Sequence record: PZ402305.1
Origin: a phage
DNA length: 64,000 nt
Strand: one strand, 5' to 3'
Positions 15,558-28,480 of this stretch are shown here, piece after piece. Every line of letters starts with the position of its first letter. Position 1 is the stretch's first letter. Under the pieces are notes generated by a model, which was given only the letters and a program-made list of their open reading frames with translations, was not told where the DNA came from and made no database searches. Made by a program: the position numbers and the translations under genes.

Positions 15558-15604
15558 TATTTTAACTTTTTTCATTTTTAGAACAAAGGTGTCACTTTGT
15601 AGCA

Positions 15605-15660
15605 CAGAAATAAGGCTCCTACAACACTGTAGAGAGCCTATTATTTTGTCCTATACAAAC
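15605..15660 (+). terminator. Hairpin terminator after NADAR gene
   Basis: Nested inverted repeat AGGCTC-CTACA-ACAC-TGTAG-GAGCCT followed by T-rich tract; approximate. Confidence 0.45.
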
Positions 15661-15779
15661 ACTTATCTTTTTCAGTTTGCATCATTAGGATTCGATCTAG
15701 GTGGGTTCCTGAAGGTCTGCCAATAAGATTAAAGGTTATCTCAAATTACCCCTACTTGTTATCTCAAAAATTCCTCAAA

Positions 15780-15990
15780 TTATTTAAACTTTTTAAGAAT
15801 TTACAAAAGTGAAAGTTGAAAACCAAAATTTAAAGTTTAGGAAAATTATCTTAAAATGTTAGATACAAAACAAAACTCAAAAGTCAAGGAAAATTTTAAA
15901 AATTTTGCGCGCCCACAGTATTTAAAGTTTTTTTGCTTTTACAAAAATGAAAGTACAAAAGCAAAATTTAAAGTTTACAAAAATTTATGC
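15780..15990. repeat. A-rich direct repeats (iteron-like)
   Basis: Two ~45 bp near-copies ACAAAAGTGAAAGTTGAAAACCAAAATTTAAAGTTTAGGAAAATT and ACAAAAATGAAAGTACAAAAGCAAAATTTAAAGTTTACAAAAATT plus shorter relatives. Confidence 0.55.
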
Positions 15991-16025
15991 AGATGGGAAT
16001 GAGAAGAGTTCTCATATGGAAATGC

Positions 16026-16046
16026 AAATGATAATGATTCGCATTT
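16026..16046. promoter_or_regulatory. Fur-box-like palindrome 1
   Basis: AAATGATAATGATTCGCATTT resembles Fur consensus GATAATGATAATCATTATC. Confidence 0.4.
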
Positions 16047-16083
16047 AGGTTTATAAATGAGATTGATTCTTATTCGATAAGGT

Positions 16084-16104
16084 AAATGATAATCATTCTC
16101 ATTT
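16084..16104. promoter_or_regulatory. Fur-box-like palindrome 2
   Basis: AAATGATAATCATTCTCATTT; 12 contiguous core matches to Fur consensus. Confidence 0.45.
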
Positions 16105-16362
16105 AGAGAATGACGCGCAGGGGCGGTGTTTGTCTCGCGTTCCCGTGTCCCCTCGCCATGTAATAAGAATAACAGATCCAGCCAGGAAAGCAAGCGATTA
16201 TTTCATCTTTACATTTCTTTACAAATATATAGCGCCCAGCCTACCGGCGATCAACCTTCCAACCAGTGCCCCTGGTATGTTAGCCCCGCCTTTACGCCGT
16301 GGGGTGGCGCTTCCTCTTCTGTATGTAAAACAGTATAAGCCCGATCCCTGGGCTTGTCAAGA

Positions 16363-16629
16363 TTATTTTTTGTTTTCTTGCCAGGATAGGACACCTAACC
16401 AAAAATACATATCGCCCCGCGCCCCTGGCGGGATCTTGCTTTCCCCGCCGCCACTGCAAGCCCATAGATAACCATTTGCGAACGTATCAAAATGATCTAT
16501 CTCTTCCACCTTATGATCGCCCAGGTTGAGAACGGTTTCAACCTTTAAGCCCGTTGCGCTTGCTACCTGGTGCACCGTGCCGCCTTGCCAGCCCAATGAG
16601 TGCATAAGGTGTAATGTAGTAGTTGTCAT
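16363..16629 (-). CDS. hypothetical protein (88 aa) in GC-rich island
   Basis: Only minus-strand ORF inside the plus-strand region; local GC clearly above surrounding phage DNA. Confidence 0.4.
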   Translation of the reverse strand: MTTTTLHLMHSLGWQGGTVHQVASATGLKVETVLNLGDHKVEEIDHFDTFANGYLWACSGGGESKIPPGARGDMYFWLGVLSWQENKK

Positions 16630-16736
16630 GGTATCGCCCTTTCTTTGTTGTGCGCCCTGGTTGGCGCGGTAGAAAGATGATAGCCCTTTCCTTTATATAT
16701 AGCAAGCAAAAAGAAAATAAAAAGATTGAAAAAGTG

Positions 16737-16795
16737 GTTGACGTTCGCCAGGTGGCGGCATAATATTTACCACGTAGGGCGGCAATGGTGCCGCT
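16737..16795 (+). promoter_or_regulatory. Early-type promoter + 5' hairpin module
   Basis: TTGACG-N17-TAATAT then CACGTAGGGCGGCAATGGTGCCGCTC. Confidence 0.6.
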
Positions 16796-16815
16796 CACTA
16801 TTTGGAGTTAAGATC

Positions 16816-17013
16816 ATGGCAACATTGCACATTGTGGCGAAAGCTGGACAAATCAACGTAATAGTAAACGGTTTTACTGAGTTCAGTCATCCCCAGGATG
16901 ATCATGAAACGGTTTTATCTTTCATTGATTCACTGTTAGAAATGGGAGTAATTACAGAAGATCAGCATACTGCAAAATGCAAGCGCGTTAAGCAGATTGC
17001 AGGAATAGAATAA
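16816..17013 (+). CDS. small hypothetical protein (65 aa)
   Basis: Start moved to ATG downstream of promoter/hairpin. Confidence 0.6.
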   Translation: MATLHIVAKAGQINVIVNGFTEFSHPQDDHETVLSFIDSLLEMGVITEDQHTAKCKRVKQIAGIE

Positions 17014-17018
17014 AAGTC

Positions 17019-17076
17019 TTGACAACAAGCCACAACCTGATAAGATGTATCACATAGGGGCGACAAGCGCCCCGCC
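17019..17076 (+). promoter_or_regulatory. Early-type promoter + 5' hairpin module
   Basis: TTGACA-N16-TAAGAT; hairpin GGGGCGACAAGCGCCCCGCC. Confidence 0.55.
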
Positions 17077-17097
17077 TAACAGAAGAGAGAAATCATC

Positions 17098-17370
17098 ATG
17101 GCATCATATAGCGCAACAATGATCGTAACTGGCACCACTGGTAAACCGATGAGCGGTGGCGGATCTTTCGCTAATATCAATATTGACGGGCGTTTATCCC
17201 TGGACGCAGCGATTGCCATTGCACGGGAAACATTTAAGAAAGAATGTAATTTCAACAAGCAAGATTATCTCGGTTTCGCTATTGAAAAAACCGCGCGCTT
17301 TGTTGATTATAAAAGCCCGAAAATGGTTGATACTACACTAAAAGCGCAAGATGTAGCGTTTTTGCTTTAA
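17098..17370 (+). CDS. small hypothetical protein (90 aa)
   Basis: Track ORF. Confidence 0.6.
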   Translation: MASYSATMIVTGTTGKPMSGGGSFANINIDGRLSLDAAIAIARETFKKECNFNKQDYLGFAIEKTARFVDYKSPKMVDTTLKAQDVAFLL

Positions 17371-17373
17371 GGC

Positions 17374-17429
17374 TTGACATTAACGAATAATTTGTTAATA
17401 TGTTACATAAAGCGGGAATAGTTCCCGCT
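17374..17429 (+). promoter_or_regulatory. Early-type promoter + 5' hairpin module
   Basis: TTGACA ... TAATAT; hairpin GCGGGAATAGTTCCCGC. Confidence 0.55.
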
Positions 17430-17446
17430 ATTTGTAAGGTGGTAGA

Positions 17447-17704
17447 ATGTTTTACATCAAATTAAAAGGTCACGTGATCGCGTTCAAAGATAACGCTTTT
17501 TACAGATTAGCAAAATATGCGTTAATACATCCCCACTATGTTTATATAAGGGGGCGTGACGAAATAAATATTTTTGATCAAACAACATGCGAAAACATCG
17601 AGATCCGCAAGGTTGGCGTACGTGATTATCGTACATCTTTCTACCCTTGCAAGGATTCAGCAAGTCTTTTTAAGGTATGTCAATTGTTGAAAAAAGGTGG
17701 TTAA
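17447..17704 (+). CDS. small hypothetical protein (85 aa)
   Basis: Track ORF. Confidence 0.6.
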   Translation: MFYIKLKGHVIAFKDNAFYRLAKYALIHPHYVYIRGRDEINIFDQTTCENIEIRKVGVRDYRTSFYPCKDSASLFKVCQLLKKGG

Positions 17705-17705
17705 T

Positions 17706-18263
17706 ATGGGCCGCGAATATGTGATCCAGTCTTGGGTAAAACATGAAGCAGATGATCCGCGCATCATTCCCGATCATCTTATCGATGAATCCACGGGATA
17801 TAGCGGTGAGCAAATAGGTAGCAGATTAGCACGTAGTAACGGCAACGTAAAAGCGCGTTATGTGCGCCCTGGCTGGCTGGCAAATGGTAACGCTGATTTA
17901 TCCAGTGCGGAAGATGCGAGCGACGGCGCGAAAGATAATCCTTTGTACAAAGTTGATCCGGCTTTTCGTGTCCTGGATGAATACCCCAGCAAGATAGCGG
18001 CGCTCGATCAGGCCCTGGAAAGTAAGCGCATCACCTGGACCGCTTACAACATGGCAAAAAACGTACTTGATGGTAAATTGATTCAAGCTGAAAGAAAATT
18101 AGCCAAAATTGCAGCCATAGCCCAGGAGGAAGACGAGGAGACAACGGAAGAGGAAGAGTACGAAGAGATCCCGCCGTTGTTGTGCGTTGATGCTTTTCCT
18201 GATTATCAGCCGACAGAGGAAGAAAAAAGGATCGCACTAGAAAACTTTGAAAATAGTCTTTGA
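17706..18263 (+). CDS. hypothetical protein with acidic C-terminus (185 aa)
   Basis: Start moved to ATG after AAAGGTGG; C-terminal EEDEETTEEEEYEE. Confidence 0.6.
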   Translation: MGREYVIQSWVKHEADDPRIIPDHLIDESTGYSGEQIGSRLARSNGNVKARYVRPGWLANGNADLSSAEDASDGAKDNPLYKVDPAFRVLDEYPSKIAALDQALESKRITWTAYNMAKNVLDGKLIQAERKLAKIAAIAQEEDEETTEEEEYEEIPPLLCVDAFPDYQPTEEEKRIALENFENSL

Positions 18264-18316
18264 CATATCGCCGCCACTGGCATAATATTTACCACGTAGG
18301 GCGGCAATGGTGCCGC
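18260..18316 (+). promoter_or_regulatory. Early-type promoter + 5' hairpin module
   Basis: TTGACA overlapping upstream stop; CATAAT; CACGTAGGGCGGCAATGGTGCCGC. Confidence 0.55.
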
Positions 18317-18345
18317 TCATAGTGAAATTATGCAAGAGGCTTACA

Positions 18346-18441
18346 ATGATTAATAAAGAAAATAGCTTGACGGTTGGAACGATTAACGCTATCATTTTCG
18401 CCGTTCCATTTTGGGTTGTATTAGCGGCTATTATTTTCTAA
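18346..18441 (+). CDS. small membrane peptide (31 aa)
   Basis: Not in track; only ORF behind this promoter; hydrophobic; approximate. Confidence 0.35.
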   Translation: MINKENSLTVGTINAIIFAVPFWVVLAAIIF

Positions 18442-18451
18442 AAAAATATTC

Positions 18452-18511
18452 TTGACAACGTTTTTTAATCTGATAAGATGTATCACATAGGGCGGCGGAA
18501 TACTTCCCCGC
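18452..18511 (+). promoter_or_regulatory. Early-type promoter + 5' hairpin module
   Basis: TTGACA ... TAAGAT; hairpin GGCGGCGGAATACTTCCCCGCC. Confidence 0.55.
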
Positions 18512-18533
18512 CAAAACAAAAAAGGGTAACACA

Positions 18534-18896
18534 ATGAGCAAGCAAATCAATACTATCATGTTTAATCTGGTATCTTTCCGCGATGATATGAAAAATTTAC
18601 CACGTGAAACGGTTGATATTCATGTTTCAGCTTATCGCGCCCTTATTGATATGTTACCGCTAAAACGTGATCAACATGCCGCTAATATGATGCTTAATGC
18701 TATGCTTAAAAAGATGATTCAAACGGATCTTACTCTGGCGTATGAGTATCAAGGGCGCTTATATGCTACTTACAACAAAGCGGTACCTGGTCTGGGAAGT
18801 ACCGAAGAGTTGCACGGCTTAAACCTGGATCAAAACACTTGGGATAGTATGCGCCGCGTTATGGTATGGGCCGAAAGCGGTAAAATTTACGAATAA
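18534..18896 (+). CDS. small hypothetical protein (120 aa)
   Basis: Track ORF. Confidence 0.6.
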   Translation: MSKQINTIMFNLVSFRDDMKNLPRETVDIHVSAYRALIDMLPLKRDQHAANMMLNAMLKKMIQTDLTLAYEYQGRLYATYNKAVPGLGSTEELHGLNLDQNTWDSMRRVMVWAESGKIYE

Positions 18897-18902
18897 AAAC
18901 GG

Positions 18903-18958
18903 TTGACACTGTTTAAAATTCTGGTATAGTTTATCACGTAGGGCGGCAATGGTGCCGC
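18903..18958 (+). promoter_or_regulatory. Early-type promoter + 5' hairpin module
   Basis: TTGACA ... TATAGT; CACGTAGGGCGGCAATGGTGCCGCC. Confidence 0.55.
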
Positions 18959-18979
18959 CAATAATAAAAGGTTAACATC

Positions 18980-19159
18980 ATGGCTATCATTGCAAAAACT
19001 GAGATTATAGGTTTAGATTCGATCCTCCTGGCTTATGAGGAAACTTTAAAAATGTATGTAGTGACCTATGGTGATTATGTGCGTGAATACGAATACATTG
19101 ATCTTGCTTTCGAATGTTACATTCGCCAGGTCAATAAAGCCTATAACGATTATCGTTAA
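18980..19159 (+). CDS. small hypothetical protein (59 aa)
   Basis: Not in track; sole ORF behind promoter; approximate. Confidence 0.45.
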   Translation: MAIIAKTEIIGLDSILLAYEETLKMYVVTYGDYVREYEYIDLAFECYIRQVNKAYNDYR

Positions 19160-19178
19160 AAGTTTTAGTCTTATACTA

Positions 19179-19236
19179 TTGACAATGAGTGATAGTATAA
19201 GCATAATAACTTTTATCGGGAATACTTCCCACTAAC
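19179..19236 (+). promoter_or_regulatory. Early-type promoter + 5' hairpin module
   Basis: TTGACA-N17-CATAAT; hairpin GGGAATACTTCCC. Confidence 0.5.
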
Positions 19237-19256
19237 CAAAAAGAGAGAGTGACACC

Positions 19257-19622
19257 ATGGCTATTAATATCAATGTTTCCGTTTATGCTACCCTGGCTGA
19301 CACGGCTAAAATTGAATTATCCAGCATTGAGGCGGTGCATATTAGCGCCCGTCGCTGGTTTCAACAGTCCTACGGTAACACATATTTTTCTTTAATAGTT
19401 GACGTTGAGATCGGCGGTAAACTGATCGAGGTGGTTAACGTTCCGTTTCAATATGGCTATGGTGATCATTTTGATACCGTCGCCCTGGAAGAATTTAGCA
19501 AGGTTATCAACCTTGAGGGCAAGGAATTTTCACGCGGCGCGTATCTTTCCCGTTTTTGCCGTGACAATGGGATCACTGTATACAGTCATGCAAGCGATGT
19601 AAAACGTAAAAAAGATTTATAA
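19257..19622 (+). CDS. small hypothetical protein (121 aa)
   Basis: Track ORF. Confidence 0.6.
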   Translation: MAININVSVYATLADTAKIELSSIEAVHISARRWFQQSYGNTYFSLIVDVEIGGKLIEVVNVPFQYGYGDHFDTVALEEFSKVINLEGKEFSRGAYLSRFCRDNGITVYSHASDVKRKKDL

Positions 19623-19627
19623 AAGTA

Positions 19628-19690
19628 TTGACAGCACGAATAAAAAGAGTAAACTGTATTACATAGAGAGCGGGAACACTTCCCGCCTCA
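19628..19690 (+). promoter_or_regulatory. Early-type promoter + 5' hairpin module
   Basis: TTGACA-N16-TAAACT; hairpin GCGGGAACACTTCCCGCC. Confidence 0.55.
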
Positions 19691-19710
19691 CTGAAAAAGA
19701 GAGAAAAATC

Positions 19711-19950
19711 ATGGCTAAATCTAAAATGTACAACGGTCACAAAAACAAAACTCATTGGAATGTAAGCCTTTGGATTAATAACGATGAATCATTATATCGG
19801 TTGGCGAAAGAATTTATCGCCGCTAATACTAATCGTAATGATGCTGCGCGGGATATGATGCTTTTTCTGGAACAAACTGGACAAGATAAAACGCCAGACG
19901 GTTTCAAATATAGCACTACTGCGATCCGCGCCGCGATGGTTGGAATGTAA
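19711..19950 (+). CDS. small hypothetical protein (79 aa)
   Basis: Track ORF. Confidence 0.6.
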   Translation: MAKSKMYNGHKNKTHWNVSLWINNDESLYRLAKEFIAANTNRNDAARDMMLFLEQTGQDKTPDGFKYSTTAIRAAMVGM

Positions 19951-19959
19951 TAAAAACAG

Positions 19960-20017
19960 TTGACAACGTTTAAAATTAGTGTAAGATGTATCACATAGGG
20001 CGGGAAGTGGTTTCCCG
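19960..20017 (+). promoter_or_regulatory. Early-type promoter + 5' hairpin module
   Basis: TTGACA ... TAAGAT; hairpin GGGCGGGAAGTGGTTTCCCGCC. Confidence 0.55.
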
Positions 20018-20041
20018 CCAACAACAGAGAGATTAAAGATT

Positions 20042-20269
20042 ATGGCTATCAATATTGTTCGCGTATCCGGCACCGTTGGCACTTCCCAGGTTATTGCAGT
20101 TGTAACAAACAAAAAGATTAATGATGTATGTGAGATCTTGAATAAGTGGGCTATTGCTAATTTTGGGGAATATGCAAGCGTCGAGTACATCGAATCCTAC
20201 CAGGTGCCAACCATCAGCCTAACCGATCTCAACGTTGATCGCCTGTTATGCCTGGATGAATTAATCTGA
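20042..20269 (+). CDS. small hypothetical protein (75 aa)
   Basis: Track ORF. Confidence 0.6.
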   Translation: MAINIVRVSGTVGTSQVIAVVTNKKINDVCEILNKWAIANFGEYASVEYIESYQVPTISLTDLNVDRLLCLDELI

Positions 20270-20278
20270 AAAAGATTG

Positions 20279-20335
20279 TTGACACGGGAAAGAAAAAGAG
20301 TAAACTATATTACGTAGGGCGGCAATGGTGCCGCT
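20279..20335 (+). promoter_or_regulatory. Early-type promoter + 5' hairpin module
   Basis: TTGACA-N16-TAAACT; ACGTAGGGCGGCAATGGTGCCGC. Confidence 0.55.
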
Positions 20336-20359
20336 CACAACAGAAGAGAGATTATCACG

Positions 20360-20572
20360 ATGGCTAATATCCGCACACTGTTAAAAAATGCAAAACAAGT
20401 TTTATTTTCTGATCACAATCATTTTAATAAAGATATTACAGGCGTGAAGAATATCAAAGATGTAAAAAGTGTTATGGGTATATATTGCAATGTTAAACGT
20501 GTTGGAACGTTCGGTGACAAGGTATTGTATCAATCAGGTGATTACAATTTTACTTTGACGATTATTTCATAA
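20360..20572 (+). CDS. small hypothetical protein (70 aa)
   Basis: Track ORF. Confidence 0.6.
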   Translation: MANIRTLLKNAKQVLFSDHNHFNKDITGVKNIKDVKSVMGIYCNVKRVGTFGDKVLYQSGDYNFTLTIIS

Positions 20573-20577
20573 AACGC

Positions 20578-20639
20578 TTGCAATACTGCAAAAATAAAGT
20601 AAACTGTATTACATCAAGGCGGGGAATGGTCCACCGCCT
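20578..20639 (+). promoter_or_regulatory. Early-type promoter + 5' hairpin module
   Basis: TTGCAA ... TAAACT; hairpin GGCGGGGAATGGTCCACCGCC. Confidence 0.5.
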
Positions 20640-20662
20640 AACAAAGAGAAGAGGAAAACATC

Positions 20663-20830
20663 ATGATTACTTTTACTACCCGTGAAGCCGCTCGCAACGT
20701 TGCACGTAAAGTTAACGCCGCCAACCTGGGTGCTACGCTTAAAGCCCCTGTAAAAGATGAATCAGGCAAATGGATCTTCCCTGGTCTGCGTCATGCTGAC
20801 AAGTTAGGTACTTTAAGCCTTAAAAAATAA
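20663..20830 (+). CDS. small hypothetical protein (55 aa)
   Basis: Not in track; approximate. Confidence 0.45.
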   Translation: MITFTTREAARNVARKVNAANLGATLKAPVKDESGKWIFPGLRHADKLGTLSLKK

Positions 20831-20833
20831 TCG

Positions 20834-20880
20834 TTGACTTTTCGTTATAGCGCCTTATAATGGGCGCTATAGAGAAGAGA
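20834..20880 (+). promoter_or_regulatory. Promoter with -10 embedded in a palindrome
   Basis: TTGACT-N16-TATAAT inside inverted repeat ATAGCGCC/GGCGCTAT. Confidence 0.5.
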
Positions 20881-20908
20881 AACCAATCACCAGAAAGAGA
20901 GAAAGAAA

Positions 20909-21127
20909 ATGGCAATCCGTAAAATTAAAGTTGTTTGCATTGAATCAACTGGTGGCGCGTTTGTAGTTGGTCAGAAGTATAATGCGGTTTTAATGGGCGT
21001 GGATTGGAAGGTTAAAGGTCTTGACGGTTACGAATACGGCACTACTCGCGGCTTGCGTGGTCGAATCGGATACGTGAGCTTTGACAACAAAGAAAAATTT
21101 GTTTTCGATACTGTTATGAGTAAATAG
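20909..21127 (+). CDS. small hypothetical protein (72 aa)
   Basis: Track ORF. Confidence 0.6.
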   Translation: MAIRKIKVVCIESTGGAFVVGQKYNAVLMGVDWKVKGLDGYEYGTTRGLRGRIGYVSFDNKEKFVFDTVMSK

Positions 21128-21200
21128 CACGAATTGCTAAAAACTAATCTGCGAATTGCTGTAATATCAACTAATCGAAACACATAAAGAGAAAAACATC

Positions 21201-21422
21201 ATGATCACTTTCGCTATTGTCACCGTTGTCGCTGGTCAAGTTTACGTAAATGAGACATTTACTACAGAAGACAAAGCAGCAGGAGATATAACCGCCGTTT
21301 ACAACGAGTGCAAGGCAGTAGAAAGGATGTTAGCGCCTTGTATGCTAATGAGTGAACGCCAGGACGGGATAACAGTGTTTAGCAACATTGAAACAGGGTA
21401 CCAAATGGTAGTAACAAAATAA
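21201..21422 (+). CDS. small hypothetical protein (73 aa)
   Basis: Track ORF. Confidence 0.6.
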   Translation: MITFAIVTVVAGQVYVNETFTTEDKAAGDITAVYNECKAVERMLAPCMLMSERQDGITVFSNIETGYQMVVTK

Positions 21423-21426
21423 AACT

Positions 21427-21485
21427 TGACACAGATTTAATTTTCAGTAAACTGTTACACATAGGGCGGGAATAGTTCCCGCTAA
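21427..21485 (+). promoter_or_regulatory. Early-type promoter + 5' hairpin module
   Basis: TTGACA ... TAAACT; hairpin GCGGGAATAGTTCCCGC. Confidence 0.55.
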
Positions 21486-21500
21486 AAAGAGAGAAAGACC

Positions 21501-21854
21501 ATGAAAGCACAAAATGCAATTAAAGAGTACATCCTTGCCGCTATCGATTTTAATGATTATGGTATTACAACCGAAAAAGAGAAGATCGCGGAATTGATGC
21601 GCCGTTTTAATTCCGAGTACTGGTACCCTGATAATCAATCACGTTTTAATTATAGTATTGTTAAAGCACTTGCATCATGGTTACAAGGTTTGCCATCAGA
21701 CATTAATATCGCTTTCGAATATTGGGAAATTGATCGTTTGTTAACATCCTGGGGATACATTAAAGAGAATAGCAGCGATGATAAAATCCAACGAGAAAGG
21801 GAAAATTATTGGCTTTATATTGCAGGCGTGATCCTTGCTTGCTCTTATGAATGA
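21501..21854 (+). CDS. small hypothetical protein (117 aa)
   Basis: Track ORF. Confidence 0.6.
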   Translation: MKAQNAIKEYILAAIDFNDYGITTEKEKIAELMRRFNSEYWYPDNQSRFNYSIVKALASWLQGLPSDINIAFEYWEIDRLLTSWGYIKENSSDDKIQRERENYWLYIAGVILACSYE

Positions 21855-21860
21855 TAAACC

Positions 21861-21918
21861 TTGACAATTTTACAAAACAGCTTAAATTAATAATATAGCG
21901 GCAATGGTGCCGCTCATA
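21861..21918 (+). promoter_or_regulatory. Early-type promoter + 5' hairpin module
   Basis: TTGACA ... TAATAT; hairpin GCGGCAATGGTGCCGC. Confidence 0.55.
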
Positions 21919-21933
21919 TAAAGAGGAAACAAA

Positions 21934-22080
21934 ATGAATACATCTAATCGCGCAGAAAAAATTCAATCTCCCAAGATCCGCAAGGCCTGGAACGAGGAAG
22001 TGATCCGCAAAGGCGACAAGCGTAATAAAACAAAGCGCGGGAAGAGTGACAAATATAATTGGATGGATTTAGAGGATTAA
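21934..22080 (+). CDS. small basic protein (48 aa)
   Basis: Not in track; Lys/Arg-rich; followed by terminator; approximate. Confidence 0.45.
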   Translation: MNTSNRAEKIQSPKIRKAWNEEVIRKGDKRNKTKRGKSDKYNWMDLED

Positions 22081-22084
22081 CATA

Positions 22085-22115
22085 ACAAGGGCGCACCAAG
22101 CGCCCTTTCTTTTTA
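22085..22115 (+). terminator. Rho-independent terminator
   Basis: AAGGGCGCACCAAGCGCCCTTTCTTTTT; same hairpin recurs at 27172. Confidence 0.6.
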
Positions 22116-22135
22116 CATGTAGAGGATAAACAAAA

Positions 22136-22321
22136 ATGACTTTAAACGAGCTTAAAACAGCCTACAACGCAACGTTAAAAATAGCCGTGCGTTACCGTGA
22201 CGAATACGGTTTTATTGCGCAGGGCGTGATCCTGGGCTTTTCTGACGATGGTTTGATTTATGTTGATGCACATCACAACAAGGTTAAACCGGAAAACGTT
22301 ATCAGTATAAAATATCTTTAA
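22136..22321 (+). CDS. small hypothetical protein (61 aa)
   Basis: Track ORF. Confidence 0.55.
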   Translation: MTLNELKTAYNATLKIAVRYRDEYGFIAQGVILGFSDDGLIYVDAHHNKVKPENVISIKYL

Positions 22322-22327
22322 AAGTGG

Positions 22328-22390
22328 TTGACACCATAACCGGACCTGTTAAACTGTATTACATCAGGCGGGGGAATAGTTCCCCACCAT
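22328..22390 (+). promoter_or_regulatory. Early-type promoter + 5' hairpin module
   Basis: TTGACA ... TAAACT; hairpin GGCGGGGGAATAGTTCCCCACC. Confidence 0.55.
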
Positions 22391-22407
22391 ACAAAAAGGT
22401 AAATATT

Positions 22408-22614
22408 ATGATCACCGCAAAACAAGAAAAAATCATTATCGACGTTGCAGCCGTTGCCGCTATTGCTATTATTGGATCTTATTATGATACCCGTTTCCCG
22501 TCGGCTATGCATGAGGTCGCCGCCGTTGCATCAGTTGGCGTACTGTTTTACGTTGGTAAACGCTATTTATCACCAATGATTAACAAGCTGACACCGTGGA
22601 AAAATAAAGGTTGA
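22408..22614 (+). CDS. small membrane protein (68 aa)
   Basis: Start moved to ATG after promoter; two hydrophobic segments. Confidence 0.55.
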   Translation: MITAKQEKIIIDVAAVAAIAIIGSYYDTRFPSAMHEVAAVASVGVLFYVGKRYLSPMINKLTPWKNKG

Positions 22615-22685
22615 TCCTGTTTTATATTGTGTTATAGTTATCGTGTAGGGCGGCAATGGTGCCGCGCCCCTTTGAGGATGCAATC

Positions 22686-22970
22686 ATGAGTAAAGCTAAC
22701 ACCGTGCTAATGTTTTCCCTGATTAATGATCCCGCTTACTTGTCCAACATGACGCAGGAGGGTAACACATTAACGGCAACATTCACCAATAAGCTTGACC
22801 GAGTGATCATCATCTCACTGAAAACAGTTAGTAAAGGCTTTTACTCGTTAGCTTATCATTGGATCACTGATACCGATGAGACAAGCCAGGACTATAGCGC
22901 CCCTTTCCCTGAATCAATGGCACGGGAGATCATCGCCGCCGTTGTAAATGATGGTTTGTTTACTGCATAA
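22686..22970 (+). CDS. small hypothetical protein (94 aa)
   Basis: Start moved to ATG after GAGG; hairpin GGGCGGCAATGGTGCCGC in leader. Confidence 0.55.
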   Translation: MSKANTVLMFSLINDPAYLSNMTQEGNTLTATFTNKLDRVIIISLKTVSKGFYSLAYHWITDTDETSQDYSAPFPESMAREIIAAVVNDGLFTA

Positions 22971-22985
22971 AAATTTAGAAAAGGC

Positions 22986-23045
22986 TTGCAATAATTTTGA
23001 GATAGTGTATATTTAATTCATAGGGCGGCGGGAATAGTTCCCAAA
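22986..23045 (+). promoter_or_regulatory. Early-type promoter + 5' hairpin module
   Basis: TTGCAA ... TATATT; hairpin GGGAATAGTTCCC. Confidence 0.5.
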
Positions 23046-23065
23046 GCAAACGAGAGGATTACACG

Positions 23066-23185
23066 ATGAGCAAGTACACAGTAGAATACACGGTAGAGAA
23101 TCCGGCAGTATCCGAAGGTAAAAAGATGACATTTGCCATCAGTATAATCGCTTTCGTTGTCACTATCTTATCAATCATCTTATAA
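23066..23185 (+). CDS. small membrane peptide (39 aa)
   Basis: Not in track; hydrophobic C-terminal half; approximate. Confidence 0.4.
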   Translation: MSKYTVEYTVENPAVSEGKKMTFAISIIAFVVTILSIIL

Positions 23186-23195
23186 GGTGCACACC

Positions 23196-23357
23196 ATGAA
23201 AATAACAGACATTATCAAAGAGATCGCCCTTGCCGCTGGCGTTGAAGTCGAGGAAGTGATCGCGCTCAATCTTACAGAAAACGATCTGCGCAACTATGAA
23301 GCGGAAAGCGTGAAAGCAAGCGGCGCGGTCCTGGTATATGATCCGGCTAACAAGTAA
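23196..23357 (+). CDS. small hypothetical protein (53 aa)
   Basis: In-frame ATG within track ORF 23157..23357. Confidence 0.5.
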   Translation: MKITDIIKEIALAAGVEVEEVIALNLTENDLRNYEAESVKASGAVLVYDPANK

Positions 23358-23366
23358 GGGGATAAC

Positions 23367-23477
23367 ATGAATCCGAAAGATATGCAAGCATGGAAAGGGT
23401 ACGACGATCTAAGCGCCTTGCGCAATAAGTCAAGCCGTAACCTTAGACGGTTGGAAGCAAAGAAAAAGAAAAAATAG
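23367..23477 (+). CDS. small basic peptide (36 aa)
   Basis: Not in track; AAGGGGA upstream; C-terminal KKKKK; approximate. Confidence 0.35.
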   Translation: MNPKDMQAWKGYDDLSALRNKSSRNLRRLEAKKKKK

Positions 23478-23478
23478 T

Positions 23479-23535
23479 TTGACAAGTCCGCGTAGTCTGA
23501 TAATATGTATCTTGTAGGGCGGCAATGGTGCCGCT
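23479..23535 (+). promoter_or_regulatory. Early-type promoter + 5' hairpin module
   Basis: TTGACA-N17-TAATAT; TTGTAGGGCGGCAATGGTGCCGC. Confidence 0.55.
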
Positions 23536-23555
23536 CACAAGAAGAGAGAAAAATC

Positions 23556-23840
23556 ATGAAAATTACAAAAAGCCTAACTAATTATGCAGCACGTCGCGGA
23601 TTATGTTTAACCGTTGAAAACTTAGGGAAAGAAGACTTTTTGTGTTTTTGGGAGCTTGAAAATGATTGCGAGTGGATGTTTTCTTATTCTATCTGCGAAG
23701 ATCAAAACGGTTGTTTGTTAACCTGGCGCGGTAATATCTATTTACCGGAAGAAATCAAAGAGGAACTACCAGGCACGATCATGACTGAGAAACAGCTTAA
23801 GGAAGTGATCAATTTTGTAGGGCAAAACATTAAAAAATAA
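23556..23840 (+). CDS. small hypothetical protein (94 aa)
   Basis: Start moved to ATG after promoter/hairpin. Confidence 0.6.
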   Translation: MKITKSLTNYAARRGLCLTVENLGKEDFLCFWELENDCEWMFSYSICEDQNGCLLTWRGNIYLPEEIKEELPGTIMTEKQLKEVINFVGQNIKK

Positions 23841-23841
23841 T

Positions 23842-23905
23842 TTGACAGTAGGCAAACAACGTAGTAAAGTTTATTACATAGAGCGGCGGAATGGTCCACC
23901 GCTCA
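23842..23905 (+). promoter_or_regulatory. Early-type promoter + 5' hairpin module
   Basis: TTGACA ... TAAAGT; hairpin GCGGCGGAATGGTCCACCGCTC. Confidence 0.55.
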
Positions 23906-23925
23906 CAACAGAAGAGAAACAAATC

Positions 23926-24096
23926 ATGATCCCGACTATGTTTTATGTATCGCGCAAAGGTCACAATATTTTTTGGTCTGAAGATTTAAATGAAGCTATG
24001 ACGTTTGCCCGTAATCGTGTTGCTATCGGTGGCGTTAACATCACCGTAACCGATGAAAATGGCATTGAATACTATAACGGCGACGATGAAGAATAA
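23926..24096 (+). CDS. small hypothetical protein (56 aa)
   Basis: Start moved to ATG after promoter/hairpin. Confidence 0.55.
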   Translation: MIPTMFYVSRKGHNIFWSEDLNEAMTFARNRVAIGGVNITVTDENGIEYYNGDDEE

Positions 24097-24174
24097 TTAA
24101 TGAGGCGGGGGGAGTATTCCCCGCCGTCAATATGGCGGGGCAATAAGGCAACGCCCATTAATGAGGGTAAAATC

Positions 24175-24279
24175 ATGTTAGAGAAAATTTTCACGGTTGC
24201 AGTGGTTGGCCTGGCGTTATCGGTTGGAGTGGTTGCAACTATGGCTAACATGATCCTATCTTCCCACGGTATCGGTTAA
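24175..24279 (+). CDS. small membrane peptide (34 aa)
   Basis: Not in track; preceded by two GC hairpins; approximate. Confidence 0.35.
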   Translation: MLEKIFTVAVVGLALSVGVVATMANMILSSHGIG

Positions 24280-24289
24280 GGTGAAACAA

Positions 24290-24505
24290 ATGATCACGAA
24301 CAAAACAGGCAAAACGGAATTTTTACGCGGCTTACAAGTTGGTAAGCCTGAGATCTGGCATTGCACGAAGTCCGCGCATAATGAAATGAAAGATTTCACC
24401 GCTACTTTACAACGTGTTAAAATATCTATTACACAGAAAAAAGCCTTGTTAGTAGTAGAAAACGAGATCCCACAAACTATTATTATTGTCGAGCGTACAG
24501 CATGA
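24290..24505 (+). CDS. small hypothetical protein (71 aa)
   Basis: AGGTGA then ATG at 24290. Confidence 0.55.
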   Translation: MITNKTGKTEFLRGLQVGKPEIWHCTKSAHNEMKDFTATLQRVKISITQKKALLVVENEIPQTIIIVERTA

Positions 24506-24888
24506 AAACAGAAATCATTATTGAAATCATCAACGGCTATAAAGAAGCTTTTATTTTTGCTGAATCAGCAAGGGATCATGAAGGTAATTTTATTGATAAC
24601 TTAGACGATTATGATTTTTCTCCTAGCGCGGACGAACGGATCGCCCAGGATGTAACAGCCTTTATTAATGCTAATCTTGCCGCTATCTCTGAGGCAATGA
24701 GCGACGGCGCAACAGCCAACCAGATCGGGAATGATTTACATTTTACCCGTAACAGTCACGGCGTAGGCTTTTGGGATCGCCCTGAAATATACACCACTAA
24801 CACGGCGAACCGCCTAACCAATGCAGCTAAGTTTATGCCGAACGTGTCGGCTTACATTGGTGAAGATAATTTGATTTATATTGAATAA
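24502..24888 (+). CDS. small hypothetical protein (128 aa)
   Basis: Track ORF, ATGA overlap. Confidence 0.6.
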   Translation: MKTEIIIEIINGYKEAFIFAESARDHEGNFIDNLDDYDFSPSADERIAQDVTAFINANLAAISEAMSDGATANQIGNDLHFTRNSHGVGFWDRPEIYTTNTANRLTNAAKFMPNVSAYIGEDNLIYIE

Positions 24889-24894
24889 AAAGTA

Positions 24895-24950
24895 TTGACA
24901 CAGATCGCCAGTGTGCTAATATTTACCACGTAGGGCGGCAATGGTGCCGC
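24895..24950 (+). promoter_or_regulatory. Early-type promoter + 5' hairpin module
   Basis: TTGACA ... TAATAT; CACGTAGGGCGGCAATGGTGCCGC. Confidence 0.55.
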
Positions 24951-24971
24951 TCCCCGAAAAAGGTAAACATT

Positions 24972-25163
24972 ATGGAAACCATCTCCTACCTGGAATCGAA
25001 TAACATGTTTTTTGCGCCCGTTGATGAAATCATCGAAGCATTAAACAACGAGGAAGGGATCAAAGGTTTATCTTATAGCCAACTTTTAGGAATGGTTGCA
25101 GCAAATGAAGAGCTTGCTTACTATGTTGAAAATTTTGATGAAGCTGTAATCTTTACAAAATAA
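24972..25163 (+). CDS. small hypothetical protein (63 aa)
   Basis: Track ORF. Confidence 0.6.
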   Translation: METISYLESNNMFFAPVDEIIEALNNEEGIKGLSYSQLLGMVAANEELAYYVENFDEAVIFTK

Positions 25164-25166
25164 TCC

Positions 25167-25225
25167 TTGATCTAATCTCTTAGATAACTTATATTTAATG
25201 CGTAGGGCGGCAATGGTGCCGCCGA
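25167..25225 (+). promoter_or_regulatory. Early-type promoter + 5' hairpin module
   Basis: TTGATC ... TATATT; GCGTAGGGCGGCAATGGTGCCGCC. Confidence 0.5.
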
Positions 25226-25241
25226 TAATGAGGAAAGTAAA

Positions 25242-25541
25242 ATGGAAACTATCGCTATTGTTACCGTAGAAAAACTGGTTGTTGGTGATGTATTCGCGTT
25301 AATGGTGCCTAACAGCAGCAAACTGGGCGCTTATGAAGTAATGGATCATAAAAATGAATCATTTGGCGACGGTTGCACAATGGCGGTAAAATCTTTAAAG
25401 GATGGAATCATCCGCCAGGCTAACTGGCACAAAGGGAATCAAGTCGGTTTAATATCAGCTAATTTCTTGCCAGAAGAGCAAACGTTAGACCAACTATCAG
25501 GCGGTAAGACGTTAGCCGAGCTACTGGAAACAGCGATCTAA
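25242..25541 (+). CDS. small hypothetical protein (99 aa)
   Basis: Track ORF. Confidence 0.6.
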   Translation: METIAIVTVEKLVVGDVFALMVPNSSKLGAYEVMDHKNESFGDGCTMAVKSLKDGIIRQANWHKGNQVGLISANFLPEEQTLDQLSGGKTLAELLETAI

Positions 25542-25585
25542 TCAACAAAGGGGCGGCAACGCCCCACATCAGAAAGGAAAAGATT

Positions 25586-25822
25586 ATGAGTATTGCAACA
25601 GTATTAAACGCCGTTAAAACCGCTGAATCATCCGGCTTGCATGTTGAGCTTATAGATCAACCAGGTGGCGATCTCCTTGTCCAGGTTTACCCGCCGAAAG
25701 TAGGGGATGATCATTATTGGTGCTATTCTGATACGTTCGAACAAGTAGACACGAAAGCGATCACGGCTTTTATTTTAAAAGCTATTGAAGAAAATAACTT
25801 TCATTATAACATCAATCAATAA
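25586..25822 (+). CDS. small hypothetical protein (78 aa)
   Basis: Track ORF; leader hairpin GGGGCGGCAACGCCCCAC. Confidence 0.6.
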   Translation: MSIATVLNAVKTAESSGLHVELIDQPGGDLLVQVYPPKVGDDHYWCYSDTFEQVDTKAITAFILKAIEENNFHYNINQ

Positions 25823-25879
25823 ACTTTAAGCAGGGGGCGGTAACGCCCTATTAAACGCAATAGGAAGAGGATAGAAAGC

Positions 25880-26170
25880 ATGAAAAAGATGATCGCAGTA
25901 GTTGCCCTGGTTGTTGGTATTAACGCGCCTGTAATGGCTAATGATTTGCCTGAATCCATCGCGTTAACCGATATCAACGCGGTAAACCGGATCGGCGTTA
26001 ATTATCGCCTATGCCTTGCCGCTAAAACTTTCCAGGACGGCACGACAGAATACCACGGATTCGAGGGTGTCCGGTGCGGTGAGCTTGCACGCGACCTTAA
26101 GGAAGATCCAGACCTTGAGGCCATACCGATGACCGTAAACGGTAAAGCTTACGTAAACCGCCAACAATGA
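25880..26170 (+). CDS. small secreted protein with signal peptide (96 aa)
   Basis: MKKMIAVVALVVGINAPVMAND; leader hairpin GGGGGCGGTAACGCCC. Confidence 0.6.
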   Translation: MKKMIAVVALVVGINAPVMANDLPESIALTDINAVNRIGVNYRLCLAAKTFQDGTTEYHGFEGVRCGELARDLKEDPDLEAIPMTVNGKAYVNRQQ

Positions 26171-26181
26171 GAAAGGTAATC

Positions 26182-26409
26182 ATGACAATGGGGATCATAG
26201 TAGCAACGCTGGCGCTGATCCCCTTCCTGGTTGAATATGTGCTGATTAGTGTTGTCCTGGTAGTCAGTGACTTATTGGAAACGGTTGGCACCTGGGAGCA
26301 GGGGAAGATAATCACCGGACGACCCCGCTATATATTGATAGCTAACATCTATCAAACAACAAAACATCAAAGAGATAAACTATCAAATCTTTACAATCCT
26401 ACCTATTGA
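26182..26409 (+). CDS. small membrane protein (75 aa)
   Basis: Start moved to ATG after AAAGG; hydrophobic N-terminal half. Confidence 0.55.
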   Translation: MTMGIIVATLALIPFLVEYVLISVVLVVSDLLETVGTWEQGKIITGRPRYILIANIYQTTKHQRDKLSNLYNPTY

Positions 26410-26465
26410 CACCGGATCACGCTTACATTATCATTTATCACGTAGGGCGGGAATGTTTCCCGCCT
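26406..26465 (+). promoter_or_regulatory. Early-type promoter + 5' hairpin module
   Basis: TTGACA ... CATTAT; CACGTAGGGCGGGAATGTTTCCCGCC. Confidence 0.55.
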
Positions 26466-26717: not shown

Positions 26718-26775
26718 TTGCTTTATAGCTCCTGTTAACTTATAGTTATTGCGTAGGGCGAGCAATACAGCAAGC
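26718..26775 (+). promoter_or_regulatory. Early-type promoter + 5' hairpin module
   Basis: TTGCTT ... TATAGT; GCGTAGGGCGAGCAATACAGCAAGCCC. Confidence 0.5.
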
Positions 26776-26794
26776 CCACAAAGAGGAAAAGAAG

Positions 26795-27171: not shown

Positions 27172-27200
27172 AAGGGGCGCACCAAGCGCCCTTTCTTTTT
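27172..27200 (+). terminator. Rho-independent terminator ending the small-gene array
   Basis: GGGGCGCACCAAGCGCCCTTTCTTTTTG; same hairpin as at 22086. Confidence 0.6.
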
Positions 27201-28273
27201 GCCCGAATAATGTTGATAGATTCCGCCTATGGAAAACCGACACAGAACAAAACTGAATAAATAGCGGTATCGAGCTAATCAACCATTAAACGAATAACCA
27301 TACCTCCCAGGGTAACAGGCTGTTAGAGAGCCATTTAGAGCGGTTAAAATCGATCAACAACCAACAAAAAACCATCAAAAACACCCTTTTACCTCCTTTC
27401 TAGTGCAATGATAACCATTATCATCTATCCATGTTTATCTATGCAATATAAGTGCATAACTATAATGTTGATAATAGTTCGCAACAACTAACTAACCAAC
27501 AACCTAAAACAATAAGCAAACTAATCATAATCAAAGGAATAATAGCAAGATGATTGATAACGACAAACAATCAAACCATGATGAATACTAAGCAAGATAA
27601 CGATAACACGACAAAACAACCAACTAACGAACAATAACAAACGAAACCATTAAAATAATAACTATTAGCAAAATAGTGCCTGAATGAAATCATTACAAAA
27701 CGAATCATTCACAGGATCATCATTAGCACGCTATGCCGGACACATAGCGAGCTAATAATAAGCCAACTACACCCCAACAATCATAACCATCGGTGATGGT
27801 TATTTCTTGTTACTGCGTAGCTTGCAATAATTGCAAGCGTAATACGCTTACACTTATTGCGCTGGCTTATTATTAGCATTATATGTAATTACCAAGATCA
27901 TAACATTAGCGCAATAACAATAATCATTGTGGTAATTACAAGATGAAATAATCGCTATCGCTCAAAGATCATTAGCAAGATGAATAATTGCACGTAGCAA
28001 CATGAGCGAATAGCGACAGGTTGCATAGTGTGCACATAGATGTACACGTAGTGTATAAACATACAGGAAAATAAAGGCTAATCTTTTGGGGGCGAATACT
28101 ATCGCGTAGCGATATGTTGAGCACTAAGAGAAGAGATAAACCTTAATCATGGGGGCGTAAATATCCGCAGGATTGCCAACGGCGATCCGGTAGGATGTTG
28201 AGCATCTTCTCTTAAACGTAAATAAAATCAGAAAATTCTTGATTTATTTTAGTTTTTATGTTAATAAACGTTT

Positions 28274-28301
28274 AAATAATAATCATTCTCATATGAATAA
28301 T
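28274..28301. promoter_or_regulatory. Fur-box-like palindrome 3
   Basis: AATAATAATCATTCTCATATGAATAAT shares ATAATCATTCTCAT core with 16084 site. Confidence 0.4.
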
Positions 28302-28450
28302 AGTCTGCTTGTCATGAGCGGGATCAGTTGACAATGTTCCGTCATATGATGAAGTTGCCAAACCATTGATAAATAAGTGTTTGTGTGATTTATAATCAAG
28401 TGGCCCACCTTGTCGCTATGTTGGCATGAGCCTTGCATAAGTCATTGAAT

Positions 28451-28480
28451 ACGAATGATAATTATTCTCATTCGCATGAT
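28451..28480. promoter_or_regulatory. Fur-box-like palindrome 4
   Basis: ACGAATGATAATTATTCTCATTCGCATGAT, near-perfect inverted repeat. Confidence 0.4.

Follow-up and report, generated by a model that had tools for sequence, protein, structure and literature searches.

A GC-rich hairpin just past the predicted start of repeated early-gene promoters in a phAPEC8-like phage, and its possible roles

What is the role of a GC-rich hairpin that recurs directly behind the promoters of some twenty small phage genes? The question is raised by a 64,000-nucleotide (nt) stretch of phage DNA (sequence record PZ402305.1; hereafter the window, read 5' to 3' on one strand), in which positions 16766-16795 (TTTACCACGTAGGGCGGCAATGGTGCCGCT, as read directly) hold the first copy of a short conserved motif followed by a hairpin. 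A reading of the sequence alone had proposed that this element lies downstream of the -10 hexamer of about 20 promoters, and had taken it for a selected structure at the transcript 5' end or an operator overlapping +1. In the analysis described here, the cassette architecture, its fixed geometry, its confinement to a 10-kb block of small early open reading frames (ORFs), its presence in four genera, the pairing of the stem, and the exchange of hairpin variants and whole cassettes were established directly. It is nearly certain that promoter, motif, hairpin and leader are parts of one cassette, and the hairpin itself probably acts at the RNA level.

Over bases 16000-22000, the window is 97% identical to Escherichia phage tuntematon and many other genomes of Phapecoctavirus, the phAPEC8-like myoviruses of about 150 kb; more remote sequence matches belong to Justusliebigvirus, Vequintavirus and the jumbo phages of Asteriusvirus. 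More than 240 records of Stephanstirmvirinae and Vequintavirinae gave a match. The motif TAGGGCGG was found in 13 exact copies, all on the + strand and all within 16775-26450, compared with 0.47 expected by chance; none of 100 shuffled sequences reached 13. Four further promoters carry single-mismatch forms (TAGAGCGG at 23879, TAGGGCGA at 26754, and the TAGGGGCG and TATAGCGG contexts). Relaxed motif searches, a promoter scan and a covariance model combined gave 22 cassettes on the + strand between 16.7 and 26.8 kb, each with a sigma70-type promoter followed by a CACR-TAGGGCGG-like sequence and a GC-rich hairpin, which bears out the original estimate of their number. The covariance model detected no additional + strand copy outside this block in a scan of the whole 64 kb. 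The genes behind the cassettes are small + strand ORFs that are hypothetical in the tuntematon annotation. At a 23rd promoter (20834), the hairpin wraps the -10 instead of standing downstream of it. This second design, with the -10 in the hairpin loop, is present in the window at 20834-20871 and in phage JohannJBalmer (L004, 3474-3520, TAAGC-tataat-GCTTA).

The hairpin is stable and fixed just past the predicted start in 20 of the 22 cassettes. Type A (GCGGCA-AUGG-UGCCGC) is identical in nine of them, type B has the form GCGGGAA-(UAG/CAC/UGU)-UUCCCGC, and further stems include GGGGCG-acaag-CGCCCC, GGCGGCGGAA-uac-UUCCCCGCC, GAGCGGCGGA-augg-UCCACCGCUC and GGCGGGGA-augg-UCCaCCGCC. All four stems first quoted for the element were recovered: GCGGCAATGGTGCCGC in nine cassettes, GCGGGAATAGTTCCCGC at 17412 and 21466, GGCGGGGAATGGTCCACCGCC at 20618 and GCGGCGGAATACTTCCCCGCC at 18492. 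As many as 9 copies within a single genus have the identical 20-mer, loop and flank included.

The promoters consist of a TTGACA-like -35, a spacer of 16-17 nt and a TAnnnT -10, with an A-rich tract further upstream, at about -40 to -45. If positions are numbered from the end of the -10, CACR covers 5-8 in most copies and 4-7 in four, and is followed by TAG; TAGGGCGG begins at 8-9 and pairing at 10-12. This slightly corrects the spacing of 7-8 nt after the -10 originally given for the motif. The offset of 9-11 nt from the -10 to the first pair is the same in the window, phAPEC8, JohannJBalmer, AlexBoehm (Vequintavirus) and ph0011. E. coli RNA polymerase usually starts 7-8 nt past the -10, at a purine preceded by a pyrimidine, and the conserved C-R step is thus the likely transcription start. 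The RNA would then begin 5'-RUAGGGCGG, and by this promoter geometry the hairpin would span about +4 to +25 of each early mRNA. The distance from stem end to start codon is 17-27 nt (median 19), and the leader after the stem is A/G-rich, often CACAACAGAAGAGAGA, and includes the ribosome site.

The predicted 5' ends (first 30 nt from the start) fold with -12.5 to -15.9 kcal/mol (z = -2.5 to -5.0 versus shuffles), whereas values of about 0 to -9 kcal/mol were obtained downstream of promoter-like matches elsewhere in the window, except at 45222 and 47296, which have terminator-type hairpins. At GGGCGG the information content reaches 1.4-1.5 bits per position, on a par with the promoter hexamers, compared with about 0.1-0.3 bits in the -35/-10 spacer. 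The outer halves GCGG...CCGC are conserved, with a gap of 8 to 12 nt between them and a variable centre; the loops vary freely (UAG, UAC, CAC, UGU, UUG, AAC, UGG, AUGG, AUAG), and the stems remain paired. The 8 nt 3' of the stems contain 0-4 T, versus 5-7 at the terminators of this genome, which have UUCG- or GNRA-type loops. On this count, which leaves no immediate U-tract, the stems are unlikely to be intrinsic terminators.

Is the pairing maintained? Two covariance models (R1 and R2) located the copies well, but placed the arms in inconsistent registers and also matched minus-strand palindromes; pairs were therefore counted in ungapped alignments of the unique hairpins from five phages, with the loop as anchor. 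In the alignment of 3-nt loops (A6; 20 distinct sequences), 87.8% of cells were paired, both-side changes numbered 24 versus 9.4 in shuffled data, and the covariation score was 0.344 versus 0.135 (0 of 500 shuffles). For 4-nt loops (A7; 17 distinct sequences), the corresponding values were 81.0%, 21 versus 10.2, and 0.358 versus 0.127 (0 of 500 shuffles). Sliding the partner columns lowered the score to 0.03-0.15, with a single exception of 0.26 that comes from the repetitive GC pattern, so that the observed scores lie mostly far above these controls as well. Compensated differences include C-G versus G-C (type A versus type B), GGCGG/CCGCC versus GGTGG/CCACT, and AGGGGAGAA/TTCTCCCT, and stems have been lengthened by paired insertions from GGGAA/TTCCC to GGGAAA/TTTCCC and GGGGAAA/TTTCCCC. 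Covariation above shuffles and compensated differences both indicate that the hairpin is real and maintained as a paired structure.

Orthology comparisons anchored on the downstream coding sequence revealed how the variants are distributed. Across the window, tuntematon, an IMG/VR relative, phAPEC8 and JohannJBalmer, five different hairpins stand before the gene that follows cassette 17019 (88-98% identical), and the promoter and leader flanking the swapped hairpin are conserved. The tuntematon hairpin at this site is the window's 19960 hairpin, and the window's 17019 hairpin precedes the 19960 orthologue in the IMG/VR relative. The type A loop is ATGG in all nine window copies and ATAG in all four copies of JohannJBalmer (Justusliebigvirus). 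These sequence patterns point to concerted evolution by short-tract exchange among cassettes. Because different hairpins stand before the same gene, the apparent compensation is mostly a swapping of ready-made variants and not stepwise mutation, and concerted evolution implies far fewer independent compensatory events than the cell counts suggest. The earlier argument from compensatory change to a selected structure thus stands as far as kept pairing is concerned, and is weakened by the small number of independent events. Gene conversion and palindrome correction at the DNA level could be the source of much of the pairing pattern.

Exchange also involves whole genes. The ORF at 24972-25163, between cassettes 24895 and 25167, is missing in tuntematon and in IMG/VR phage L128; both have a single hybrid cassette, with the 24895 promoter on the left, the 25167 leader on the right and the junction inside the hairpin patch. 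Other breakpoints relative to tuntematon coincide with a terminator that is duplicated and with the promoter-less hairpins around 24.1 kb. The bidirectional terminator AAGGGCGCACCAAGCGCCCTT occurs at 22087-22107 and 27172-27194, the latter closing the early block, and its repeat bounds a 541-nt insertion in tuntematon. In the hairpin of cassette 22328-22388, the G/C runs differ among the window, tuntematon and L125 (G5/C4, G4/C4, G4/C3); homopolymer slippage therefore alters the stem and is not always compensated.

The same promoter-hairpin design was found in Justusliebigvirus, Vequintavirus and jumbo Asteriusvirus besides Phapecoctavirus. TAGGG is conserved only in Stephanstirmvirinae, not in the Vequintavirus or Asteriusvirus copies. 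Early ORFs in window 18500-20000 have about 75% nucleotide identity to Asteriusvirus jumbo phages (348-384 kb) such as ph0011 (L005), which use the same promoter-hairpin-Shine-Dalgarno design (AAAGTACTTGCAA...TATAAT...GGCGGGGAAtggTTCCCCGC); ORF identity and shared design together suggest that early gene cassettes have been exchanged across unrelated phage lineages. An IMG/VR scan for GGCGGGAAnnnTTCCCGCC returned mostly terminators of unrelated phages, with a T-run behind it in 92 of 232 strand instances and only 5 instances that are promoter-proximal. The exact 20-mer TAGGGCGGCAATGGTGCCGC is present in three related GC-rich uncultivated virus genomes (L123 607-626, L124 2890-2909, L129 6232-6251). 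In L123, the copy overlaps the stop codon of a tape-measure-like gene (781 aa), and the next ribosome site follows about 20 nt further on. The flanks in L124 and L129 are nearly identical to these, which suggests that the context is shared; these copies at a tape-measure gene end are probably chance matches, and were rejected as true relatives. Rfam 15 contained no relevant family, the lone sub-threshold match (RF03142, 19.6 bits versus a gathering threshold of 37.8) probably being due to chance. The phAPEC8 record (NC_020079) marks GTAGGGCGGCAATGGTGCCG and related 20-mers as "putative promoter determined with PHIRE", beside "host dependent" sigma70 promoters. The repeat itself was thus already seen in 2012; the stem-loop is not described there.

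The cassette comprises, in order, an A-rich upstream tract, near-consensus sigma70 -35 and -10 hexamers, 7-8 nt, a predicted start at CAC-R, then UAG, a GC-rich stem-loop of 8-10 bp at about +4 to +25, an A/G-rich leader and the start codon; the element under study would be the transcribed part of this modular early-gene expression unit of a phAPEC8-like myovirus. A function of the hairpin in RNA is favoured because its distance from the -10 is fixed, its distance from the start codon is narrow, its loops are free and the design recurs in four genera. The hairpin would most likely act as a 5'-proximal structural clamp that slows 5'-end-dependent decay by limiting RppH and RNase E access or scanning, and that leaves the leader and ribosome site free of upstream pairing. 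Such a clamp would serve primary transcripts and also read-through transcripts cut in the AU-rich promoter region. Stabilisation specifically can be put forward only tentatively; insulation of the ribosome site or hindrance of RNase E scanning is an equally plausible version of the clamp idea, and would also account for four promoter-less hairpins between early genes. These GC-rich hairpins have no T-run, and the next start codon follows after 20-45 nt. The conserved patch of 25-45 nt (CACRTAGGGCGG...CCGC plus leader) could in addition, as a side effect or in a second role, supply the homology by which cassettes recombine, and would thereby give rise to concerted evolution, hairpin swapping and one-gene indels, as proposed for the promoter-early stem-loop (PeSL) cassettes of T4-like phages, a link absent from the first reading of the sequence. 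It seems best to regard recombination as an outcome, perhaps a selected one, of repeating the patch 20 times. The combined statement, a 5' hairpin that stabilises or insulates the mRNA together with a recombination patch, falls a little short of an even chance.

Known biochemistry lends the clamp a precedent and also sets its limits. E. coli mRNAs are stabilised by 5' secondary structure, since RppH and RNase E need single-stranded 5' ends (PMC3997798). For both enzymes two unpaired nucleotides are enough and three or more are preferred, and U at position 2, as in the predicted RUAG start, is disfavoured by RppH (PMC8833179). With the conserved purine as +1, the predicted unpaired 5' tail is 0-4 nt, being 0 in 3 copies and 3-4 in 15 of 22. 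Tails of 3-4 nt would allow at most partial 5'-end protection, so that the transcript 5'-end structure first proposed is upheld in its fixed position after the predicted start and is not assured as a pure 5'-end-blocking stabiliser. This is one of several observations that weigh against the clamp. The +1 positions come solely from promoter geometry, and a literature search for the motif, start sites and transcriptomes of Phapecoctavirus and Vequintavirinae returned nothing useful. Mismatches of the G.T and A.C kinds are equally frequent (10 versus 11), giving no signal of strand-specific selection on RNA, and the sequences alone are therefore silent on whether RNA or DNA pairing is the selected structure. 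Much of the covariation signal can be traced to register shifts and to a handful of variant classes that were repeatedly inherited or copied. Outside the early block, strong sigma70-like promoters such as those at 7142-, 9227- and 49994- stand without such a hairpin. The stems of cassettes 19179 and 22986 are just 5 bp long (that of 26718 is irregular), the orthologous JohannJBalmer counterpart of promoter 18903 has no downstream hairpin, and the counterpart of 26406 (L004 10900), assigned by promoter similarity only, keeps TAGGGC without a hairpin; the hairpin is therefore dispensable for some genes. A further idea, that protected mRNAs counter an Srd-stimulated RNase E, was dropped as unsupported, since the Srd-like rV5 gp11 had no tblastn match in the 64-kb window.

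Among rival explanations, recognition of the single-stranded RUAG plus hairpin by a phage or host protein that controls the whole early set is doubtful, though likelier than the others. Possible readers are an endoribonuclease acting in shut-off, a repressor of translation, or a factor for anti-termination or processivity that is loaded at the 5' end. Up to 9 identical 20-mers per genus exceed the need of bare stability, GGGCGG is conserved like the promoter hexamers, the loops are not the thermodynamically favoured tetraloops of this genome's terminators, and a linear motif followed by a hairpin resembles boxA-boxB. However, loops and upper stems vary freely, TAGGG is missing in the Vequintavirus and Asteriusvirus copies, the identity within genomes is accounted for by gene conversion, no candidate binder was identified, and an anti-terminator would have few terminators between cassettes to overcome. 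A related and less likely proposal is that RUAG plus hairpin is a shared 5' tag on early transcripts of Stephanstirmvirinae, Vequintavirinae and Asteriusvirus, read by a dedicated factor that turns the entire early regulon on or off post-transcriptionally; the interchangeable hairpin variants would then be a small code tuning single genes on mobile gene cassettes. About as unlikely is an attenuator or terminator of transcription from the upstream gene, as proposed for PeSLs, which would leave each gene dependent on its own promoter alone. The hairpin is GC-rich and intergenic, promoter-less hairpins stand between genes too, the T-run after GGCGGGAAnnnTTCCCGCC in unrelated phages can be counted in favour, and a PeSL stem-loop lowered lacZ expression as strongly as rrnB T1 (PMC2839356). 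Yet there is no U-tract (0-4 T in 8 nt) and the leader is usually A-rich, the stem lies downstream of its own start, where an efficient terminator would stop its own gene, and the fixed distance from the -10 would be left unexplained.

That the hairpin has no function of its own, being a selfish or neutral palindrome spread by gene conversion and quasi-palindrome repair and hitch-hiking with promoters, is improbable. Variants do move between cassettes independently of the gene, evolution within genomes is concerted, G.U and A.C show no asymmetry, and some orthologous promoters are hairpin-less; but four genera from three higher taxa keep the hairpin's position and stem strength although the sequences differ, the start-codon distance is narrow, and neutral inserts of 20 nt should decay in DNA as densely packed as that of a phage. 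The other half of the original proposal, a DNA operator over +1 to +25 for a dimeric phage repressor of the early promoters, is very unlikely, even with an inverted repeat directly past the start of every early promoter and conserved outer GCGG...CCGC, because the spacing of the half-sites varies from 8 to 12 nt and the centre is free to vary, which fits a stem and not a fixed protein footprint. The inner arms covary and are not conserved, and the GGGGCG/CGCCCC stems have no common half-site. Least credible is that the 20-mer is a phage-specific promoter, as the NC_020079 label on GTAGGGCGGCAATGGTGCCG would have it and as a faint likeness of CAC-ATAGGG to the CACTATAGGG start of T7-type promoters might suggest. 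A canonical sigma70 promoter stands at a fixed distance upstream of every copy, only the -10 is conserved 5' of CAC, and a promoter there would leave almost no leader; we know of no phage RNA polymerase in the phAPEC8-like group. CACATAGGG as a T7-type promoter start was likewise rejected, as the upstream sequence is not conserved and the sigma70 promoter is always present.

What would follow if the clamp and recombination patch are real? Large virulent coliphages of three lineages, several of them in use in phage therapy collections, would build their host-takeover genes from one portable expression unit, whose transcribed hairpin both shapes mRNA fate and favours gene shuffling, extending the PeSL idea beyond T4-like phages. 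The cassette would provide an annotation rule for early promoters and start sites in hundreds of genomes in which the motif is unannotated or called a promoter, and its natural, matched 5' hairpin variants would be suited to studying the control of mRNA decay by 5' structure in the course of infection. The mechanism would belong to a new class only if a specific reader protein exists, and the 5'-tag proposal, if true, would amount to a phage regulon signal of a new kind, one that travels on mobile gene cassettes.

The cassettes and related hairpins of the window are listed in Table 1. Directly upstream of the first cassette is a 1.2-kb non-coding stretch (15560-16740) in which tuntematon annotates a repeat_region. 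It contains, especially at 15776-15985 and 15998-16106, a direct repeat of 72 nt with 82% identity, as well as a set of three or four palindromes at 29 nt spacing (AATGAGAAGAGTTCTCAT... / AATGATAATCATTCTCATTTAG); these repeats resemble iterons or operators, and the stretch could be an origin or genome terminus. A second AT-rich stretch, without convincing ORFs, follows the early block at 27200-28800 and holds scattered short direct and inverted repeats, e.g., 27742-27765 / 27863-27886.

Table 1. Promoter-hairpin cassettes and related hairpins in the window (all on the + strand; hairpins as arm-loop-arm; start positions predicted).
Feature	Span	-35	-10	Hairpin	ATG	Remarks
Cassette 1, type A (copy first pointed out)	16738..16798	TTGACG 16738-43	TAATAT 16761-66	core GGGCGGCA-atgg-TGCCGCTC 16777-16796	16816	+1 G16774
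Cassette	17019..17073	TTGACA	TAAGAT 17041-46	GGGGCG-acaag-CGCCCC 17057-17073	17098	+1 about A17054
Cassette, type B	17374..17429		TAATAT 17396-401	AGCGGGAA-tag-TTCCCGCT 17411-17429	17447	ATAAAG replaces TAGGG
Cassette, type A	18260..18318		TAATAT 18283-88	18299-18318	18346	+1 about G18296
Cassette	18452..18512		TAAGAT 18474-79	GGCGGCGGAA-tac-TTCCCCGCC 18491-18512	18534	one bulge
Cassette, type A	18903..18959		TATAGT 18925-30	GGCGGCA-atgg-TGCCGCC 18942-18959	18980	
Cassette, weak hairpin	19179..19230		CATAAT 19202-07	GGGAA-tac-TTCCC 19218-19230	19257	-5.5 kcal/mol; without TAGGG
Cassette	19628..19689		TAAACT 19650-55	GAGAGCGGGAA-cac-TTCCCGCCTC 19666-19689	19711	tuntematon loop TAG
Cassette	19960..20019		TAAGAT 19982-87	GGCGGGAA-gtggt-TTCCCGCC 19999-20019	20042	
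Cassette, type A extended	20279..20338		TAAACT 20301-06	20314-20338	20360	
Cassette	20578..20639	TTGCAA	TAAACT 20600-05	AGGCGGGGA-atgg-TCC(a)CCGCCT 20617-20639	20663	found by covariance model
Variant promoter	20834..20871	TTGACT	TATAAT 20856-61			16-nt spacer; no hairpin downstream
Hairpin of variant promoter	20846-20871			TATAGCGCC-ttataatg-GGCGCTATA		-10 in loop
Cassette, type B	21426..21483		TAAACT 21448-53	GGCGGGAA-tag-TTCCCGCT 21465-21483	21501	
Cassette, type A	21861..21914		TAAATT 21883-88	AGCGGCA-atgg-TGCCGCT 21897-21914	21934	TATAGCGG replaces TAGGGCGG
Cassette	22328..22388		TAAACT 22350-55	GGCGGGGGA-atag-TTCCCCACC 22367-22388	22408	C.A mismatch
Cassette, type A	22611..22668	TTGATC	TATAGT 22633-38	22648-22668	22686	
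Cassette, degenerate hairpin	22986..23042	TTGCAA	TATATT 23008-13	GGGAA-tag-TTCCC 23030-23042	23066	TAGGGCGG at 23021; only this part pairs
Cassette, type A extended	23479..23538		TAATAT 23501-06	23514-23538	23556	-21 kcal/mol including flanks
Cassette	23842..23904		TAAAGT 23865-70	GAGCGGCGGA-atgg-TCCACCGCTC 23881-23904	23926	TAGAGCGG; 1x1 C.A internal loop
Promoter-less intergenic hairpin pair	24104..24156			GGCGGGGGGA-gtat-TCCCCGCC 24104-24125; GGCGGGGC-aataag-GCAACGCC about 24134-24156		breakpoint versus tuntematon
Cassette, type A	24895..24952		TAATAT 24917-22	24933-24952	24972	left partner of one-gene indel
Cassette, type A	25167..25223	TTGATC	TATATT 25190-95	25206-25223	25242	right partner of one-gene indel
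Promoter-less intergenic hairpin	25550..25565			GGGGCG-gcaa-CGCCCC	25586	20 nt before ATG
Promoter-less intergenic hairpin	25834..25849			GGGGCG-gtaa-CGCCCT	25880	about 30 nt before ATG
Cassette, type B	26406..26465		TATCAT 26429-34	GGGCGGGAA-tgt-TTCCCGCCT 26445-26465	26483	
Last cassette, irregular hairpin	26718..26777	TTGCTT	TATAGT 26741-46	GGGC..GC-atacag-GC..GCCC 26756-26777	26795	TAGGGCGA

How does the cassette compare with known systems? The PHIRE element of NC_020079 is the same 20-mer at the same sites, but it is labelled a promoter, and neither the stem-loop nor its place relative to the sigma70 promoter is described in the record. REP/BIME elements are likewise short, GC-rich, imperfect palindromes that are intergenic, transcribed, recombination-prone and subject to concerted evolution. 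However, REPs are found at 3' ends or between cistrons, protect the upstream mRNA, measure about 35 nt and have no tie to promoters. The lambda nut and HK022 put sites share a promoter-proximal linear motif plus small covarying hairpin in early phage operons. In the present case there are more than 20 copies, each before a one- or two-gene unit, the linear motif is CACRTAG and differs from the boxA consensus (CGCTCTTA-like), and the stem is GC-rich, 8-10 bp long and has free loops, whereas nut has a 5-bp stem and a GNRA-like pentaloop. The put RNAs of HK022 are about 70 nt long with two stems, and to our knowledge there is no N-like gene in the cassette-bearing phages. The 5'-terminal stabilising stem-loops of the E. 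coli ompA and papA mRNAs (Emory, Bouvet and Belasco, 1992, as cited in PMC3997798) are similar in that a stable hairpin lies a few nt from the predicted 5' end, upstream of and apart from the ribosome site, with hindrance of RppH and RNase E as the expected action. Unlike these, the phage hairpins form a family of more than 20 copies, and their predicted tail of 3-4 nt exceeds the ideal length for protection (PMC8833179).

PeSL cassettes have been described in the T4-like phages RB49, phi1, PST and nt-1, where sigma70 early promoters and an adjacent stem-loop precede ORFans and are implicated in modular shuffling (Arbiol et al., 2010, PMC2839356; Comeau et al., 2014, PMC4122927). In both systems, a strong early promoter of sigma70 type, preceded by an AT-rich tract, is joined to a neighbouring GC-rich stem-loop, a Shine-Dalgarno sequence and a start codon; both occur in tens of copies before small ORFan genes in a plastic region (here 22 in 16.7-26.8 kb); and in both, close relatives differ by indels of a gene together with its cassette whose junctions lie in the repeats, here that of ORF 24972-25163. 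Some features set the present cassettes apart: 1) the lineage, which is Stephanstirmvirinae, Vequintavirinae and Asteriusvirus and not T4-like, 2) a stem that is fixed inside its own transcript, whereas most PeSL stems lie between the -35 and -10 hexamers or overlap the -10, and are assumed to come before the start, 3) the absence of the terminator or attenuator position and of the T-run, only the 20834 stem lying over the -10, 4) a CACR-TAGGG linear motif preceding the stem, and 5) exchange of the hairpin alone between cassettes. With no U-tract here, the terminator role proposed for PeSLs does not transfer. The 20834-type design, with the -10 in the loop, resembles the commonest PeSL subclass. 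Overall, the cassette is a variant of the promoter/stem-loop cassettes known from T4-like phages.

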